Shown here one piece after another: positions 1 to 21,574 of a stretch of 32,383 nt of DNA. Both the position numbers and the translations under genes were made by a program. How positions within the stretch are numbered: position 1 is the stretch's first letter; each line of letters begins with the position of its first letter. Source of the DNA: a virus. Lineage: Duplodnaviria; Heunggongvirae; Uroviricota; Caudoviricetes. The notes under the pieces are model-generated. The model was not told the DNA's origin, searched no databases, and was given only the letters and a program-made list of their open reading frames with translations. Where the stretch lies: positions 1 to 32,383 of the IMG/VR virus record IMGVR_UViG_2861069343_000002. One strand, written 5' to 3'.

Positions 1-780
1 ATGGAAAACAAAAAAAGTTGCGTTTATTGTAAAAGCACAACAAACTTAACTAAAGAACATATTTTCCCTTCAGCAATAATTAAAAGTTTTAATGTTGAAC
101 TTTTATCGATGACTGATAAGAGTGACTACCATTTTAAAGGCGATCCAGTTATTGGGGATGTATGCGCTGAGTGTAATAATGGAATACTGTCGCAACTAGA
201 TGCTGATTTCGTAACTTGTTTTAAAAATCAGATGCTAACACCTTTAAAACCCGGAAATGAAATAACATTTGAATATGAATATGATTTATTATTACGTGAA
301 CTTCTAAAGATATCATATAATTCAGCGAGGGCATCAAATGGTGGTTATAATGCCAGAGCCATTTTAGAAAAATACATACCATTCATAATCACTGGCAATA
401 AAAACAAAAATGTAGATAGTATAATTCTTTCCCTTCTAATTGTAACTTCTGCAAATATGGTTAATCTGGAAACTGGTAAACATGAAGAGCCTTTAGAACC
501 ATATCTATTAAGAAGCGCATCGATTGATGGTTTAAACCTCAACCCTAACAATTATATTGTTAGGATGGTTGCATTTAATAGCTTTTGGTTTTTTTTGTTA
601 ATTCCAAAGAGGCCAGTTACATCCAAAGTGAAAAAAGAATTTTGGGATGAATTTAAAAGAAAAAATCATCTGCATGGAGTTTTGTTAAAAAGAAACAACA
701 CGTCAATAAAGATCACAAAAGATAAAACGACATATTTGCATCCTGACTTAATAGAAAAGATGTGGCGAAAAATAAAGTAG
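1..780 (+). CDS. HNH (His-Me finger) endonuclease-domain protein, 259 aa, AT-rich cargo gene
   Basis: ORF begins with ATG at window position 1. N-terminal CVYCK...TKEHIFP...CAECNNG spacing is typical of HNH nucleases. Visibly AT-rich compared with phage structural genes (by eye, not computed). C-terminal half has no recognisable motif. Confidence 0.5.
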   Translation: MENKKSCVYCKSTTNLTKEHIFPSAIIKSFNVELLSMTDKSDYHFKGDPVIGDVCAECNNGILSQLDADFVTCFKNQMLTPLKPGNEITFEYEYDLLLRELLKISYNSARASNGGYNARAILEKYIPFIITGNKNKNVDSIILSLLIVTSANMVNLETGKHEEPLEPYLLRSASIDGLNLNPNNYIVRMVAFNSFWFFLLIPKRPVTSKVKKEFWDEFKRKNHLHGVLLKRNNTSIKITKDKTTYLHPDLIEKMWRKIK

Positions 781-1040
781 AACAAATTTTCCAGTTGACA
801 ATACCAAAAATAATTAATGGGGACTAGGTTAAATGACGCAGTGGAACAAACTCACCAGAGAAGAAAATTAATGGTATTAATGTTCAATGTGTTCATTACT
901 GTAACCTAGCCCCTACTAATTTATTCACTATATTGCTGAGTATGTCCGCATCTGGCACATAGCAGCCCTAGAGATAGGAGCACACAGTCATAGATGGTCG
1001 GTGGGAGGTAGTGAAAATCCTCTCATACAATAAATACGTA

Positions 1041-1391: not shown

Positions 1392-1925
1392 TTAAAATAC
1401 GGTGAATACATCACACAGGTCCGATAAAACTTCTCGACAAACATGCCTATGATCGCTGAGCACAGAGTTTATATGCTGAAGTGTTATATACTCTTCATAC
1501 CATTCTTGTGTTACAACATTTTTCAAATTATAGAGCCTGTGAAATGACTCTTTTGCCTCCTGCGAATTAACAAATTGTTGATTATGCCCCATTAACCTCA
1601 TTAAAAACCCCTCCAAACAAAATGGTGAGGATTGAATGATTTGTATGTCTCTATTTCTAGCAGCAGATAGAGCATCAGTAGGTATTGCAAGGTCTGAGTC
1701 AATAAAAACAACTCTTTTATCAAAACTACCAGCATGGTTTATAGCAGCCATTATAGCTGATTTCGGTCCTCCACCGCCGGCATCATCTAACCTAACACTA
1801 AACCCTGCAGTCCTAGTTGTTAAGAGTCGTTTTAAACAATCAGCAAATCTTTTATCAGTAATTCCTTCGCACATCAAAAGCTTAGTTCGTTCAACTCCAC
1901 GCTTTACACGTCTGGGCTTCATCAT
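1392..1925 (-). CDS. RloB-like / TOPRIM-like small protein, partner of the upstream AAA ATPase
   Basis: 177 aa. N-terminal basic stretch then LLMCEGITDKRF (CEGxT[ED] motif as in RloB/DUF4276), later VVFIDSDLA acidic motif. ATG overlaps the ATPase stop (ATGATGA junction at 1922..1925), indicating translational coupling. Confidence 0.5.
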   Translation of the reverse strand: MMKPRRVKRGVERTKLLMCEGITDKRFADCLKRLLTTRTAGFSVRLDDAGGGGPKSAIMAAINHAGSFDKRVVFIDSDLAIPTDALSAARNRDIQIIQSSPFCLEGFLMRLMGHNQQFVNSQEAKESFHRLYNLKNVVTQEWYEEYITLQHINSVLSDHRHVCREVLSDLCDVFTVF

Positions 1926-3196
1926 AAGTCTGGTACTCCTCCAAAAGCACCAGCTAAATATTTAGCCGCAATATTATCGTCGACTCGCGCCTCACTGGAT
2001 GGAAAATCATCAAGTCGATAACATTCACTTCTATTGAATTTTTTCTCAGTAATCAACACACGGTACTTACCCAAATAATTTATCAATTCGGGTTTATGAC
2101 AAGTAAAAATTAACTGTGTATGTAACGGGTTTGTTTCTTTACTGATAAACAACTCTAATATAGGTTTAACCATATGTGGGTGCAAATCATCACCAAGTTC
2201 ATCAATAAAGCATGCTGTTCCTTTTTTCAGACATTGCATAATATTATGCAATCTGATAAATGCACTTTGTGTTCCAGCAGATTCGAATGCAAAGGGTAAC
2301 TCAAACTTGGAACCATCTTCTTTTTCATGAATACCATTTATAATATAATAAACATCCTTCTCACCGTTTATATCAACTTTCTCTTCTTTTTCTATAGTTA
2401 TATCATCTAAACCTAAATCCCATTTGCGTAAAATATTTTTTACACTTTTAAAGGCTACTGGATCTTTATATAAATCCTCCGCTGTCGCACCTAAATCTCC
2501 ATAATCATAGCTATACCTTCCCATAGCATTTACATTAGTAGTACTGCTCATTTTTTCGGCTATATCTATAGCCAAAGGAACACCTACACGGCGAGCTGCA
2601 GAAATTATACTTGTATTAGCAGGAGTTCTCTTACCCTCTAAAAGACCTAAAGGAAAAAGTTCTGCTTTTTCAACATAATCATATTTAATTGTTTTTAACA
2701 GTTCTTCAACTTCTTGATGACTAAAATCATCACTACAATTATTTAACTGTTTCTCATAATTTTCTTTATCCAACTTCCTTTTAAAAACATAGATATTTTT
2801 ATTTTTCTCATTTCTTACATACAATTCTTCTTTAATGACAAAATGGTCGCAGGCCGTAACAACATATGTGTATACTTTTCCATCTAAAACAAAACATATT
2901 TTAATCATACCTGGTTTTGTAAAAGGCCGATTAATGTTTAAATACAGATAATCAGTTACTTTTGCTGGTATAGACCAAAAAAACCAACTCAAGAAAGACA
3001 TTGGTTTAAGGAGTGTTGTCTTACCGGAGGCGTTCGCCCCCATGATAGCAGTAATCAGATTGACCTTGTGTCCATCTACATCTACCCACAGTTCTTTTTT
3101 CTTATCTTTAGCTGTAGTAGTTAGGTCTACGAACCCACCTTCATCTTCAAAGCTACCGATATTCTTAATCTCATACCAAAGTATAGCGTTAGCCAT
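1922..3196 (-). CDS. AAA family ATPase (ABC/AAA_21-like), candidate abortive-infection/defense ATPase
   Basis: 424 aa. Walker A GANASGKTT near N-terminus; Walker B plus H-loop ACFIDELGDDLHPH near C-terminus. Strong SD (AAGAGGGG) before ATG at 3196. AT-rich. Confidence 0.7.
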   Translation of the reverse strand: MANAILWYEIKNIGSFEDEGGFVDLTTTAKDKKKELWVDVDGHKVNLITAIMGANASGKTTLLKPMSFLSWFFWSIPAKVTDYLYLNINRPFTKPGMIKICFVLDGKVYTYVVTACDHFVIKEELYVRNEKNKNIYVFKRKLDKENYEKQLNNCSDDFSHQEVEELLKTIKYDYVEKAELFPLGLLEGKRTPANTSIISAARRVGVPLAIDIAEKMSSTTNVNAMGRYSYDYGDLGATAEDLYKDPVAFKSVKNILRKWDLGLDDITIEKEEKVDINGEKDVYYIINGIHEKEDGSKFELPFAFESAGTQSAFIRLHNIMQCLKKGTACFIDELGDDLHPHMVKPILELFISKETNPLHTQLIFTCHKPELINYLGKYRVLITEKKFNRSECYRLDDFPSSEARVDDNIAAKYLAGAFGGVPDL

Positions 3197-3274: not shown

Positions 3275-3297
3275 AAAAACATAGACATGATTTAGTT

Positions 3298-3388
3298 AAA
3301 TCGATAACGGCCGGAAATCATTCAATTCCCGCACTATCGAACGTTCACCAGCCAACCGCAAAACGTTATTGCATACAACGTTTCTGCG
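3298..3388. repeat. Direct repeat copy B (~90 bp), diverged copy of 1041..1130
   Basis: See copy A. Lies between the stf stop and the ATPase promoter. Confidence 0.6.
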
Positions 3389-17067: not shown

Positions 17068-18120
17068 TTATTTCCCCACCAGCTCGTTTATCTCTTTCAC
17101 TGTCTGGTTAAACCGCTCTGACTCAAGCTCAACACCTAAGGCCCGACGCCCCAGCGCCATTGCTGCTTTTATTGTGGAACCGGATCCCATAAAAAAATCA
17201 GCAACCAGATCACCTGGTCGACTACTGGCATTGATTATTTGCCTGAGCATATCCGCCGGTTTCTCACACGGATGTTTCCCCGGGTAGAACTGAACGGGTT
17301 TATGCATCCAGACATCGGTATAAGGCACGGAGACTGATACGGAGAAATAGCGCCGGAGAGATTTAAACTCATCCAGCAATTCAGAATATTTGCGATTCAG
17401 TGAATCATAAGATGCCACCAGCTGGTGGTGTGGTTGTTCCAGTTGTTGTTCCTGAAACTTCTCTGCCGCTATACGGGAAAACAGTGCCTGTAACTTCCGA
17501 TAGTCAGCCTCATTCGGCAACTGCCACTGACTGGCACCAAACCAGTGGGAAACCATATTTTTCTTACCTGTGGCTTCGGCAATTTGTTTTGCCGTTACAC
17601 CCAGTTCGGCACGAGCATCCCTGAAATACGATATCAGCGGTGCCATTATGTGCTGTTTGAGTTCCCTTTCTTTTGCCGCATAGCCGTCACTTTTGCCGCG
17701 ATATGGTCCCTGGTAATGTTCAGCAAACAGAACGCGCTCTGTGGCAGGAAAATATGCGCGCAGACTTTCTTTATTACACCCATTCCAACGTCCGGACGGC
17801 TTCGCCCAGATGATATGGTTAAGCACGTTGAAACGTTCACGCATCATGATCTCAATATCAGATGCCAGGCGATGCCCACAGAACAGGTAAAGGCTTCCGG
17901 CAGGTTTCAACACCCGCCAGAACTGGGCCAGACAGTGGTCCAGCCACTTAAGGTAATCTTCGTCCCCTTTCCACTGATTGTCCCAACCGTTGGGTTTCAC
18001 CTTGAAGTAAGGCGGATCGGTAACAATCAGGTCAATGGAATCATCAGGCAGGGACTGAATAAAATGCAGGCAATCAGCGTTGATTAAATCAACACTGTTT
18101 ATTTTTACAGTATTTTTCAT
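17068..18120 (-). CDS. DNA N6-adenine (or N4-cytosine) methyltransferase, beta-class, orphan phage MTase
   Basis: Motif IV DPPY near N-terminus (LIVTDPPYF) and AdoMet motif I FMGSGST near C-terminus; 350 aa. Confidence 0.8.
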
Positions 18121-18269
18121 GGATCAGTAAGCGTAACTCTGGTAGGCTCACTCTGCTTTTGCGCTAAAGCAGTGGGCCGTGGTTCGCTTGTGACCAGTAA
18201 GCATGAGCGAATGGCTGGCAGGTGCTACCAACACCCACCAGCCGCCCATTTTCACAAATTAAAAGTCCT

Positions 18270-18464
18270 TCATTGCTGAAGGCGTCTGTAACAGCCGAAC
18301 TGGTAATCTGCCAGCCCCGCCATAACCAACTGGGTCAGTATTAACTGACAGCGTTCGCGTGAAAGATATGTGTTTTGTGCAATCTCCCCGACTGTTGCCG
18401 GTTCGATGCTTAATTCATTAAAAACAACTTTCGCCGTTTCTGTCATATCTTGCTGTTTTAGCAT
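18270..18464 (-). CDS. Hypothetical small protein, possible HTH
   Basis: 64 aa from ATG 18464 with SD AAGGA; segment TVGEIAQNTYLSRERCQL is HTH-like. Weak support. Confidence 0.3.
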   Translation of the reverse strand: MLKQQDMTETAKVVFNELSIEPATVGEIAQNTYLSRERCQLILTQLVMAGLADYQFGCYRRLQQ

Positions 18465-18586
18465 GTCTTTTTTCCTTCTGGTTAACATGACATACCAATA
18501 ACTCTTGTCTAAAAAGCCAGCAAGATAAAAAGTCAGTATTCACGACCACCAGCGTGTTTACCGTACTGCACCAGGTTTACAGGTAC

Positions 18587-18612
18587 AAAAAAACCCGCTC
18601 GACGGCGGGTTT
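18587..18612 (-). terminator. Strong minus-strand intrinsic terminator upstream of the plus-strand cassette
   Basis: Minus-strand AAACCCGC-CGTCGA-GCGGGTTT hairpin followed by TTTTTTT. Confidence 0.5.
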
Positions 18613-18657
18613 AAGTTGTGTGGCGAAGTAACCACTCTTAACACAATACAATACTTT

Positions 18658-18686
18658 TTGCGTACGCGTTATAGTTTTCTTACAAT
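18658..18686 (+). promoter_or_regulatory. Candidate sigma70 promoter of the DUF262-HEPN cassette
   Basis: TTGCGT (18658..18663), 17 nt spacer, TACAAT (18681..18686); SD AAGGAA then ATG at 18713. Confidence 0.3.
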
Positions 18687-18712
18687 CAACTTTCAATTAA
18701 AGGAACGAAAAC

Positions 18713-19873
18713 ATGACTACACTCAAAGAACTCAAAGAAGAGCTTGCTCAGATACAAGATGAACACGCTAAGAACAGAAAAAAGGCTGAAATTGCAGCTT
18801 TAACCGCTTCCGCTGACAATGAAATCAGACTCGCTCAGAGAAACATTGGATACAATGTACGTGAGTGGACCGTTGAAGTCATTATTCAAAAGTATGGTGA
18901 TAATATTGAAAATGACAAAAACGAGCTTTTTATTCCAGATTATCAACGTGATTACAAGTGGGATACAAAAACAGCCTCTCGCTTTATAGAAAGTATTCTA
19001 TTAGACTTTCCAATACCTTACCTTTACATTGCTGATGTATTTAATGAAGACCCTGAATTAGATGGTAGGGTAGAAATCATTGATGGTTCACAACGGATAC
19101 GCTCTATTTATTATTTTTGGAACGATCAATTTGAGTTAAAGGATTTGAAAGAGCTTAAAAGTTTAGAAGGTTTCAAATTTTCAGATCTTTTAGCTAGCCG
19201 CCAAAGAAGATTTTTAAGAGCTTCACTAAGATTTATTGAGTTGAAAGGTGATGTTGAGGAACAACATAGAAGAGATTTATTTGAAAGGATCAACTCAGGT
19301 GTTAAAAGATTAGAAGCGATGGAAGTGAGGCATGGCTCAGATGCTGCTACCTCAATGTTCTATAAAGATGTTGTGACCCCATGCTCAACAAACTCACTTT
19401 TTTCCCAACTAGCTCCATTATCAGACCGGAAACGGTCGAATGGCGATCATCGTGAGTTAGTTTTGAGATTTTTTGCATATTTAAATGATTTAGAAAACTA
19501 TAAGGGATTTGTCCGTCCCTTTATTGATAATTATTTAAATGAACAAGCAGCAGCTGTGACTACTCAACAAGATGTTGATAATTTTAAACATGATTTTGAA
19601 ATGATGCTTGCTTTTGTTGCTACCCATTTCCCTATTGGCTTTAAAAAGACCGCAACAAGTAAAACCACCCCACGAGCCAGATACGAAGCCATTGCCGTGG
19701 GAACTGCACTTGCATTAAAAACTAACCCACAACTCCAGAGTCCAGCCGTACCTGTAGGTGAATGGCTATTTGAAGAGGAATTTGAAACACTTGTTACTGC
19801 TGATAGTGCAAACAATACCAGCCAGCTAAAAAACAGAATCTTTTACGTTAAAAATAAGTTGTTAGGGATTTAA
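18713..19873 (+). CDS. DUF262 (ParB/Srx-like, GmrS-type N-terminal domain) protein
   Basis: 386 aa; hallmark motifs FIPDYQRDYKW and IIDGSQRIRSI (DGQQR variant); no DUF1524/HNH C-terminal domain evident; AT-rich. Confidence 0.75.
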   Translation: MTTLKELKEELAQIQDEHAKNRKKAEIAALTASADNEIRLAQRNIGYNVREWTVEVIIQKYGDNIENDKNELFIPDYQRDYKWDTKTASRFIESILLDFPIPYLYIADVFNEDPELDGRVEIIDGSQRIRSIYYFWNDQFELKDLKELKSLEGFKFSDLLASRQRRFLRASLRFIELKGDVEEQHRRDLFERINSGVKRLEAMEVRHGSDAATSMFYKDVVTPCSTNSLFSQLAPLSDRKRSNGDHRELVLRFFAYLNDLENYKGFVRPFIDNYLNEQAAAVTTQQDVDNFKHDFEMMLAFVATHFPIGFKKTATSKTTPRARYEAIAVGTALALKTNPQLQSPAVPVGEWLFEEEFETLVTADSANNTSQLKNRIFYVKNKLLGI

Positions 19874-19875
19874 AA

Positions 19876-20565
19876 ATGAGTCTAATTGATTTACGAGATG
19901 AATATGAAGAAAGAGCAAGAGACATTATGGAACTGCTTTCTCTTGCATCATCTATAGAGATTCATACTCAGCAGTTAGATCCGCAAGCGCATCAAGATGA
20001 AATAGAATCTAATATCCTAAGGGTAAATATTTTAAAATCATCCGTTCATATGATGCTATATAATCAAGTTGAAAATACTGCCAGAGGTTGCATCGAGTCA
20101 ATTTATGATCATTTACAAGATAATGAGGTGAATTACGCATCACTCAGGGAGAAGCTTCAAGTAAATATATTACATAGAATTGTTTCAGATAATGAAACAG
20201 GGCAATCCCTTTATAAAAAGATAGGCACTGACATTTCCAAAAGAATAATTTCAGCCTCATTGAATATTCGTAAAGAATTCAATGGTAATGTTTGCAAGCC
20301 TGTATTACACAAAATAACGCAGGCTTACGGAATAACTATCGCAAACTCACCTGAATGTAGAAATGGTATTGACTTAGACTTGCTTAAGGATATCAGAAAC
20401 GAACTCGCGCATGGAAGTACTAGCTTCTCTAAAAAGGGGCAAATTGACCCCTTAGAAGAAGTTAAGTCTAGAGCAGAGAGAGTTGATCTATATCTTCGTT
20501 TATTAATAAACTCAACTGAAGATTATATTATCTCTAACGGATATTTATCCCCTCAACATGCCTAA
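19876..20565 (+). CDS. HEPN-domain protein (Rx4H motif), putative RNase effector coupled to the DUF262 gene
   Basis: 229 aa; RNELAH matches HEPN R-x4-6-H; starts 2 nt after the DUF262 stop with SD AGGGA; 3' end overlaps convergent MTase gene by 32 nt. Confidence 0.65.
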   Translation: MSLIDLRDEYEERARDIMELLSLASSIEIHTQQLDPQAHQDEIESNILRVNILKSSVHMMLYNQVENTARGCIESIYDHLQDNEVNYASLREKLQVNILHRIVSDNETGQSLYKKIGTDISKRIISASLNIRKEFNGNVCKPVLHKITQAYGITIANSPECRNGIDLDLLKDIRNELAHGSTSFSKKGQIDPLEEVKSRAERVDLYLRLLINSTEDYIISNGYLSPQHA

Positions 20566-21574
20566 CAAACGTTCTCCCTATTACTTGGCCAATTATAGGG
20601 GGAACAGCATTACCAATCATCGTTCCTAACTTTTGGAATGAAAAAGGCGTATTTTTTCCAATAAATTTATAATCCATAGGAAAAGATTGTAAAATAGCAG
20701 CTTCACGCAAAGTTATTGCTCTATTTTGCTCAGGATGTCCGAATCGCCCATTACCATATCCATAACATTGGGTAGTTATTGTAGGACTAGTATCGTCCCA
20801 AACCATCCGTCCATAAACACTTTTATAGGTAGCACCTGAATGCTTTTTATGGCAATCCGCTCTAATTTCTTCAGGCCAATCATCCCACGTACCACCTGGT
20901 AAAGAGTGCAAGATTCGTTTAAGGTTAATATCCCTTAATTTAGGCGAACGATGCAATGGATCACTTTCGAGTTTCTCCCCTGCACCTATTTTTGGCAACT
21001 GACCAATAGCATCCTTTACTGTAACTTTACGGCTTACTTTTTTTTGATCAAGGCTGATTGGCCCCAATATGGACCCAATTAGAATTAATCTACGTCTATT
21101 TTGAGGCAAGCCATACTCGGAACATTTTACAACGTCGTACCACAGATGATACCCAAGAGTCTTTAATACACTAACAAACTCTTCAAAAACCTTATGATTT
21201 CTAAGTTGAGGAACATTTTCCATAGTCACAAGCTCTGGCATGACATCACTTACAATCCTCTGAAACTCAGATAAAAGACGCCACTTTGTATCATCTTTTC
21301 TGCTATTTGGATTACGATACTTGGAAAACGGTTGGCAAGGGGCACAGCCTGCAAGTAATCTAATATTTCCTTCCTTGAACATAGCAGACACATCGCTGGA
21401 TTGCAGTTCAGTAACTGACTGGTTAATGAACTTCGTTAAGGGATTATTGCTCTCAATAGCGAAACGGCAGGACTCATCAATATCAATGCCATGAGAAACT
21501 TCAATCCCGGCTTTTTTTAGCCCAAAAGTTAAGCCCCCTGCGCCACAAAAAATGTCTACTGCTTGAATGTTCAC
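20534..21574 (-). CDS. DNA cytosine-5 methyltransferase (Dcm-like), first gene of the late operon
   Basis: Motif I DIFCGAGG, motif IV GCAPCQPFS (catalytic PC), motif VI ENV, motif VIII QNRRR, motif X GNAV; GTG start at 21574 with SD GGAGAA. Confidence 0.85.
   Translation of the reverse strand: MNIQAVDIFCGAGGLTFGLKKAGIEVSHGIDIDESCRFAIESNNPLTKFINQSVTELQSSDVSAMFKEGNIRLLAGCAPCQPFSKYRNPNSRKDDTKWRLLSEFQRIVSDVMPELVTMENVPQLRNHKVFEEFVSVLKTLGYHLWYDVVKCSEYGLPQNRRRLILIGSILGPISLDQKKVSRKVTVKDAIGQLPKIGAGEKLESDPLHRSPKLRDINLKRILHSLPGGTWDDWPEEIRADCHKKHSGATYKSVYGRMVWDDTSPTITTQCYGYGNGRFGHPEQNRAITLREAAILQSFPMDYKFIGKNTPFSFQKLGTMIGNAVPPIIGQVIGRTFVRHVEGINIR

Follow-up and report, generated by a model that had tools for sequence, protein, structure and literature searches.

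The first gene of a 32,383-nucleotide (nt) stretch of Caudoviricetes DNA (IMG/VR record IMGVR_UViG_2861069343_000002, positions 1 to 32,383; hereafter, the window) encodes, at 1..780 on the + strand, a His-Me finger (HNH) superfamily protein in which an HNH module with a split core is joined to a C-terminal domain of ~175 amino acids (aa) with no assigned family or fold. We found that this gene, referred to here as the HNH gene, is complete and autonomous, that its catalytic residues are under strong purifying selection, that no conserved partner accompanies it, and that the cassette bearing it is mobile. With moderate confidence, we interpret it as an autonomous one-protein nuclease, carried as prophage cargo, that would protect the lysogen against other phages. 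An initial annotation, made from the letters of the window, had described a standalone AT-rich gene at the window edge with an N-terminal HNH motif followed by ~180 aa of unassigned sequence, a description that our data bear out, and had raised the possibility of a system continuing upstream, which they contradict.

The HNH gene and its product

The window begins at the annotated ATG start codon of the HNH gene, a complete coding sequence ending in TAA, whose 259-aa product (29.8 kDa, isoelectric point (pI) 9.1) appears in identical genomes as the PGAP entry WP_086625066.1, ‘hypothetical protein’. An open frame this long would arise by chance with a probability of ~1e-10 (~8.5% stops among random codons at the given base composition). 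The HNH gene is a real protein-coding gene under selection, since its ratio of nonsynonymous to synonymous substitution rates (dN/dS) is 0.11–0.23 relative to four homologues. The G+C content of its region is 30–32%, vs ~50–60% in the adjoining host DNA. All five cassettes compared have an alternative start (ATG or GTG) 9 nt upstream of window position 1, while the codon aligned to position 1 is ATG in Escherichia coli and TTG in the four others (4/4). In E. coli AR437 (locus L001, where window position 1 corresponds to 12001), an in-frame TAA lies 27 nt upstream of position 1 and leaves room for at most three extra codons. There is therefore no longer HNH gene, and the concern in the initial annotation that the open reading frame (ORF) could be the 3′ portion of a longer one can be set aside. 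A promoter-like TTGACT-17-TACTCT occurs at window −67..−39 and a Shine-Dalgarno-like GGATGG 5 nt ahead of position 1; the former was not called by a consensus scanner because its −10 hexamer is weak.

The nuclease module spans aa 7–78 (19..234, + strand), with support from Pfam HNH_5, conservation, AlphaFold and hhalign, and has the motif order C7-x2-C10 ... E19-H20 ... C55-x2-C58-N59 ... D67, in which the two CxxC pairs (C7, C10, C55 and C58) form a predicted Cys4 zinc site. Conservation was assessed in 122 representative relatives with a median identity to the query of 27%, and was 99% for H20, 96% for E19, 100% for N59 and 99% for D67, with the zinc-site residues at 97% (C7 and C10) and 100% (C55 and C58). 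AlphaFold assigns strands to residues 16–20 and 50–55, with E19-H20 ending the first strand, and a helix to residues 62–78. By alignment to the HNH consensus, rather than by structural superposition, N59 would be the structural Asn and D67 a metal ligand on the helix. The Pfam HNH_5 profile (PF14279) matches the query at aa 7–26 only (E=4e-5; profile positions 1–23 of 56), the match being partial because an insertion of ~25–30 aa separates the two core strands, and its gathering threshold is exceeded by several homologues (28.2 bits for P0171, with precomputed PF14279 matches for others). The protein belongs to the His-Me finger superfamily: it has the core motifs, and its relatives clear the Pfam threshold, at which the query itself is borderline.

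The basic C-terminal domain (aa 84–259, pI 9.65; 250..777, + strand) had no match in Pfam, NCBIfam, PADLOC or PDB sequences, so that the profile search suggested earlier gave no family assignment; in PHROGs there was only a weak match to an unannotated family (phrog_10503, E=6e-5). A conserved face is nonetheless apparent on the predicted helix 94–110 (R99, K103, N107, R110), in addition to R171, R188 and F197. Most residues of this basic face reach the 96% or more that holds for every catalytic and zinc-binding residue. Overall, the positions conserved in 91–100% of the 122 relatives are C7, C10, E19, H20, P23, D53, V54, C55, C58, N59, L63, D67, L97, R99, K103, N107, R110, R171, R188 and F197. 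AlphaFold models the protein as one compact globule (predicted local distance difference test score (pLDDT) 89.7; predicted template modelling score (pTM) 0.89), for which no fold match was found in PDB or BFVD. Shuffling of the C-terminal domain among proteins was considered and rejected, a profile search with the domain alone having returned the same architecture only. The combination of a split HNH core and this unassigned domain has no model in PADLOC v2 (2023) or NCBIfam (June 2026) and no solved relative.

The cassette, its prophage setting and its relatives

Thirteen complete E. coli chromosomes contain the first 3.6 kb of the window in identical form, and the distribution of the HNH gene in this species is rare and patchy (13/5426 complete genomes). 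Extending the sequence upstream, a check that the initial annotation had proposed, revealed beyond the in-frame stop ~500 bp of non-coding prophage end, an attachment-site copy, the host yagP pseudogene and paoD, in this order, with no intact ORF longer than 56 aa before the attachment-site copy in the 13 identical genomes. The attachment-site duplicate consists of 42 nt copied from the 3′ end of tRNA-Thr(CGU) and lies at ~window −554..−513, and the full tRNA-Thr(CGU) gene (30940–31015) adjoins the integrase gene (29807–30925). Moreover, the HNH cassette is bordered on the left by a 62-bp stretch (L001 11700–11761, ~window −300..−240) that shares 92% identity with lambda 27322–27384, in the b region to the left of attP. 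A degraded lambdoid prophage at thrW has the HNH gene as its final one, in the place that the b region takes in lambda. Given that the upstream DNA consists of a promoter-like site, the prophage end, the attachment-site copy and host genes, nothing of a system continues there; a longer upstream gene and an upstream partner were both considered and are excluded by the in-frame stop and by the lack of an intact ORF before the attachment-site copy. Of the promoter or partner gene that had been expected outside the window, the first thus has a plausible counterpart in the −67..−39 site, while no partner emerged in ~70 loci.

A cassette extending from ~window −262 to +945/958 is common to Klebsiella oxytoca, a P2-like prophage of Hafnia, Enterobacter and a viral contig, with 79–87% identity. 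It includes a 3′ non-coding flank that moves with the HNH gene (781..958, + strand), the DNA homology with other cassettes stopping at 787–958. Another viral contig (L076) has the same left and right flanks around other cargo, namely a DUF4145 gene and a 33%-identical family member in opposite orientation. The presence of a distant, inverted allele between the same flanks indicates cassette turnover at a hotspot.

Relatives numbered 87 in a single-sequence search and 483 in profile searches, and a representative library yielded 1869 matches at E<1e-3 and 447 at E<1e-30. Nearly all are 245–290 aa long and align end to end, and their hosts include Proteobacteria, Cyanobacteria, Bacillota, Myxococcota, Bacteroidota and others, besides 18 IMG/VR viral contigs. 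We found no paper mentioning the protein accessions. HNH_5 as such is frequent among the domains of integron cassettes (PMC7370490), and includes the unannotated ‘group 8’ of a 2017 superfamily classification (PMC5714182). Two longer members (P0173 and P0226, 411–439 aa) have a C-terminal extension of ~170 aa with a faint match to Pfam Crr6 (PF08847; E ~0.008); a Crr6 domain has been reported in the integron defence protein Divona, a likeness that may be coincidental. In Hydrogenophaga (L062 9899–10267), a truncated remnant that retains the C-terminal domain only, with the HNH part gone, adjoins a TIR-domain gene, suggestive of a copy that has decayed in surroundings of a defence type.

To survey the neighbours, the ORFs of ~75 loci were clustered, and Pfam and PADLOC scans were run on 122 immediate neighbours (~61 non-redundant loci). 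No recurrent partner was found: no Pfam family occurred more than three times among the 122 immediate neighbours, and none recurred in the ~70 loci, so that the search for a conserved neighbour in other genomes, also suggested at the outset, came back empty. The commonest families, with three occurrences each, were UmuC-like IMS, phage tail S, integrase and HTH_3, while methyltransferase matches were one or two, isolated and not recurrent. Cluster c88, which in L066 and L067 seemed to be an upstream partner, was discarded as a shadow ORF antisense to gpV. Immediate neighbours matching PADLOC models, once each, included dGTPase, Hachiman, Shedu, PDC-M34B, NsnA and others, in addition to the AbiL genes of the E. 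coli block described below.

Several relatives occupy recognizable cargo sites. Four P2-like prophages have the relative at the gpS/gpV junction, in one of them beside a gene for DUF4238, a family that, in P2-like phages, has been validated as defending against T7 with a single gene (PMC9122126). A relative in Morganella lies between tail fibre and integrase genes, and another at the end of a Mu-like prophage, adjoining umuDC-like genes. In the chromosomal integron of Vibrio parahaemolyticus, the relative is the sole ORF of a cassette that two attC-type repeats of ~125 bp enclose (L085 5543–5668 and 6449–6588), an arrangement that likewise speaks against a system continuing upstream. The same array holds ParE/Phd, Mrr_cat and Shedu-like cassettes, and the relative of a second strain adjoins a TIR gene; an abundance of small defence systems has been reported for integron cassettes (bioRxiv 10.1101/2024.07.02.601686).

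Proposed function and competing explanations

The prophage and integron contexts described above are typical of defence cargo and support the interpretation of the HNH gene as a one-protein anti-phage nuclease. We infer a nuclease activity, an anti-phage role, a substrate and a mode of control that would operate as follows. The N-terminal, zinc-stabilized His-Me finger would cut nucleic acid, with H20 as the general base and E19 and D67 holding the metal. The basic C-terminal domain, packed on the HNH module, would bind the substrate through the Arg/Lys/Asn face of its helix and set when or what is cut. Self-damage would be avoided within the protein itself, such restraint being proposed as intrinsic because there is no antitoxin, methyltransferase or ATPase partner. 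It could take the form of recognition of a feature of foreign DNA, as in a type IV-like restriction of modified phage DNA resembling that by McrA, or the protein could stay latent until an infection cue, amounting to abortive infection.

Several points weigh against this interpretation. At 23.8 bits, the query itself is under the HNH_5 gathering cut-off of 27.5, and its sequence does not tell a DNA from an RNA substrate, nor restriction from abortive infection. The relatives are named only ‘hypothetical protein’ or ‘HNH endonuclease’ in every source, and the two model collections cited above, PADLOC v2 and NCBIfam, have none for this family. The PADLOC matches, at ~10/122 neighbours, are an eyeball estimate with no background comparison, and many loci lie among housekeeping genes, as at two different Shewanella sites.

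More tentatively, the protein could be the founding example of widespread one-protein immune nucleases (~450–1900 clusters at 50% identity), in which a domain of ~175 aa, its fold not in PDB, would control a split HNH core and serve as a novel type of reader for foreign or modified nucleic acid or for an infection signal, and which would spread as a minimal cassette via prophage cargo sites and integrons. If it truly acts in defence, it would represent a compact 30-kDa nuclease needing no partner, with its specificity in a domain of unknown fold, and would add to the catalogue of bacterial immunity as well as provide a possible new nucleic-acid recognition module. If it has no defence role, it would be one more uncharacterized HNH gene on a mobile element. 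The HNH gene stands as a well-defined, widespread defence candidate, one among many such.

An alternative that we regard as unlikely is that the nuclease serves the life cycle or DNA metabolism of the carrier prophage, in recombination, degradation of host DNA or help in packaging. HNH proteins help terminases in some phages, and the family is often prophage-encoded, as in the 18 viral contigs. However, relatives also occur outside prophages, in the integron array and in chromosomal islands, and the genes occupy cargo positions, away from those for terminase, and frequently run antisense to the late operon (as in L066–L068). The HNH gene is, moreover, dispensable, since its presence or absence varies within one phage type, as the small number of E. 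coli carriers illustrates, and it has stayed intact in the window prophage, which is itself degraded.

The cassette structure bears on a second alternative, a free-standing homing endonuclease, that is, a selfish HNH gene that would cut cognate loci lacking it, spread through their repair and bring the host nothing. The HNH fold is classic for homing endonucleases, the gene resides on a discrete cassette (flanked by ~260 bp upstream and ~180 bp downstream) in lambdoid, P2-like and Mu-like prophages, and the four P2-like phages share the same gpS/gpV junction. Nevertheless, we consider homing rather improbable. The HNH gene is not inside an intron or intein, which disposes of the form of homing envisaged in the initial annotation, and it is free-standing and intergenic in all loci examined. 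Its family has many unrelated insertion contexts (the attC integron cassette, sites beside IS110, housekeeping neighbourhoods), and the distant allele in L076 is inverted between the same flanks, these flanks being accessory and not the conserved target genes expected of homing. Nor does the C-terminal domain match a known homing-endonuclease DNA-binding module.

The flanks are equally at issue in a third proposal, which we find quite doubtful, in which the protein would be the toxic half of a toxin-antitoxin or addiction module with a small antitoxin, peptide or RNA, in the conserved flanking DNA. A lone nuclease needs restraint, most homologues have a weak TTG start codon, and the ~260 bp upstream travel with the HNH gene, as does a long imperfect hairpin of ~110 nt at 812–921, 30 nt past the stop codon (free energy −35.6 kcal/mol, z −4.5). 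The hairpin is retained in K. oxytoca (z −3.1, with apparent compensatory changes) but lost in the viral contig L064 (z −0.7), and may be a terminator or a relic. Against an antitoxin, identity in the non-coding flanks is 68–73%, compared to 69–70% at third codon positions; because they diverge at the synonymous-site rate, the flanks are co-inherited baggage with no extra constraint and no hidden RNA or antitoxin. Consistent with this, Rfam had no match in the cassette flanks, RNAalifold gave weak consensus structures (−9 and −1 kcal/mol) and no conserved small ORF was found on either strand, and a regulatory RNA or small antitoxin in the flanks was thereby rejected. In distant relatives, furthermore, the flanks are tight or different, and the integron cassette fits the ORF only.

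The nearest genes within the window form an AbiL pair, comprising an RloB-like AbiLii gene (1392..1925, − strand; 177 aa, PADLOC E=1.5e-9) and an AbiLi ABC/AAA_21 ATPase gene (1922..3196, − strand; 424 aa, PADLOC E=1e-65), a complete two-gene system with overlapping stop and start. The HNH gene is convergent with the AbiLii gene across a 611-bp gap, and the pair is bracketed by a ~94-bp direct repeat with 78% identical copies at 1038–1130 and 3295–3388, in agreement with the initial annotation, which had not taken the HNH gene for an operon partner of the ATPase/RloB pair. That it is a third component of the AbiLi/AbiLii system, like the ATPase–HNH pairings in Septu or in lambda Ea59/Ea31, is very improbable even though Septu and the lambda b region provide examples of such pairs and the three genes form one 3.9-kb block with 99.7% identity in two prophage backgrounds, given the convergent orientation and gap, the separate repeats of the AbiL pair, the identical HNH cassette without AbiL in viral contigs L063 and L065, the lack of an AbiL or ATPase neighbour for other family members (~70 loci), and the lack of PtuB or more than core-level Ea31 likeness detailed below. 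The AbiL pair is a cassette independent of the HNH gene.

The two backgrounds of the 3.9-kb block are the lambdoid prophage at thrW and, in E. coli F467, an e14-like prophage, where the block lies directly downstream of pinE; the 94-bp repeat is absent from K-12 e14. Thousands of E. coli genomes have kept the second repeat copy, located just downstream of a tail-fibre-assembly remnant. In L063 and L065 the HNH cassette abuts the repeat, and the space between repeat copies, occupied by AbiL in the window, contains a pair of helix-turn-helix (HTH) and ImmA-like metallopeptidase genes in L063 and is empty in L065; given this variation, the 94-bp repeat seems to delimit exchangeable cargo cassettes. 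These data offer a view of cargo exchange at prophage ends, with short conserved flanks and the 94-bp repeat delimiting cassettes (the HNH gene, AbiL, the HTH/ImmA-like pair) that lambdoid, e14-like and P2-like phages trade with one another. Right after the first repeat copy, at 1131–1192, is a low-complexity tract with a run of ten C and, ~30 nt on, AAAAAACAAAAACAAAAACAAAAAAAAC.

Further defence-like cargo is present in the same prophage at 17068–21574, according to the annotations of the identical AR437 genes: a DNA methyltransferase gene (17068–18120), a DUF262 gene (18713–19873) directly followed by one for a MAE_28990-type HEPN-like nuclease (19876–20565), and a second DNA methyltransferase gene (20534–21574).

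Comparison with known nucleases and defence systems

The HNH protein shares with the Pfam HNH_5 nucleases their CxxC...EH...CxxCN...D core, the predicted beta-beta-alpha arrangement and the Cys4 zinc site. The Pfam model, however, comprises the 56-residue core only, whereas here the core is split by 25–30 aa and is always joined to the ~175-aa domain, and no protein with this split-HNH architecture has been characterized.

EcoKMcrA, the type IV restriction enzyme of cryptic prophage e14, resembles the HNH protein in several respects: one gene encodes an HNH nuclease of much the same length (277 aa), no methyltransferase accompanies it, and the gene is prophage cargo located at the end with the attachment site. 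The HNH block in the e14-like prophage of E. coli F467 occupies, downstream of pinE, the spot where K-12 e14 has mcrA. The two proteins differ in that HNH is C-terminal in McrA but N-terminal in the HNH protein. Orthology to McrA was rejected (hhalign probability 1%, with nothing beyond a CxxC), there is no relation to the McrA flank, and the C-terminal domain showed no homology to modified-base readers (the McrA N-terminal domain, SRA or similar) in hhalign, Pfam, PDB sequence and fold searches. A solitary nuclease without a cognate methyltransferase is nonetheless a feature in common with type IV McrA-like enzymes, the modification dependence being putative here.

A second likeness is to lambda Ea31 and Septu PtuB, which are also HNH nucleases with a Cys4 site, in a lambdoid b-region-equivalent position. 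These work with an adjacent ABC-type ATPase (Ea59 and PtuA, respectively), while the HNH gene has no such partner: no adjacent co-oriented ABC/AAA ATPase of the Septu type was found, the sole nearby ATPase, AbiLi, being convergent and no ATPase being recurrent. Orthology to Ea31 was likewise rejected (BLASTP E=0.53; hhalign probability 21% over 49 columns, limited to the CxxC..H..CxxCN core), and the PADLOC PtuB models gave no match to the HNH protein. As for CBASS Cap5, which combines HNH with SAVED, we found neither a SAVED/CARF-like sensor domain in the HNH protein nor a cyclase neighbour, and AbiL neighbours occur only in the E. coli block and at none of the other ~70 loci. Because a defining feature is lacking in each case, the HNH protein is outside the Septu/PtuB-Ea31, McrA, Cap5 and AbiL families.

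The remaining comparison is with the single-gene cassettes. DUF4238 has no homology to the HNH protein. Sirona and Nemetona, from the V. cholerae integron, have been described as distantly HNH-related, with kinship to NinG or a type II enzyme domain rather than to HNH_5 (bioRxiv 10.1101/2024.07.02.601686), a description by which they would differ from the HNH protein; no V. cholerae protein was among the best 120 profile matches listed, nor in the single-sequence or C-terminal-domain searches. Nevertheless, DUF4238 in P2-like phages and Sirona and Nemetona in the integron are, like the HNH gene, small one-protein units located at the same kinds of sites.

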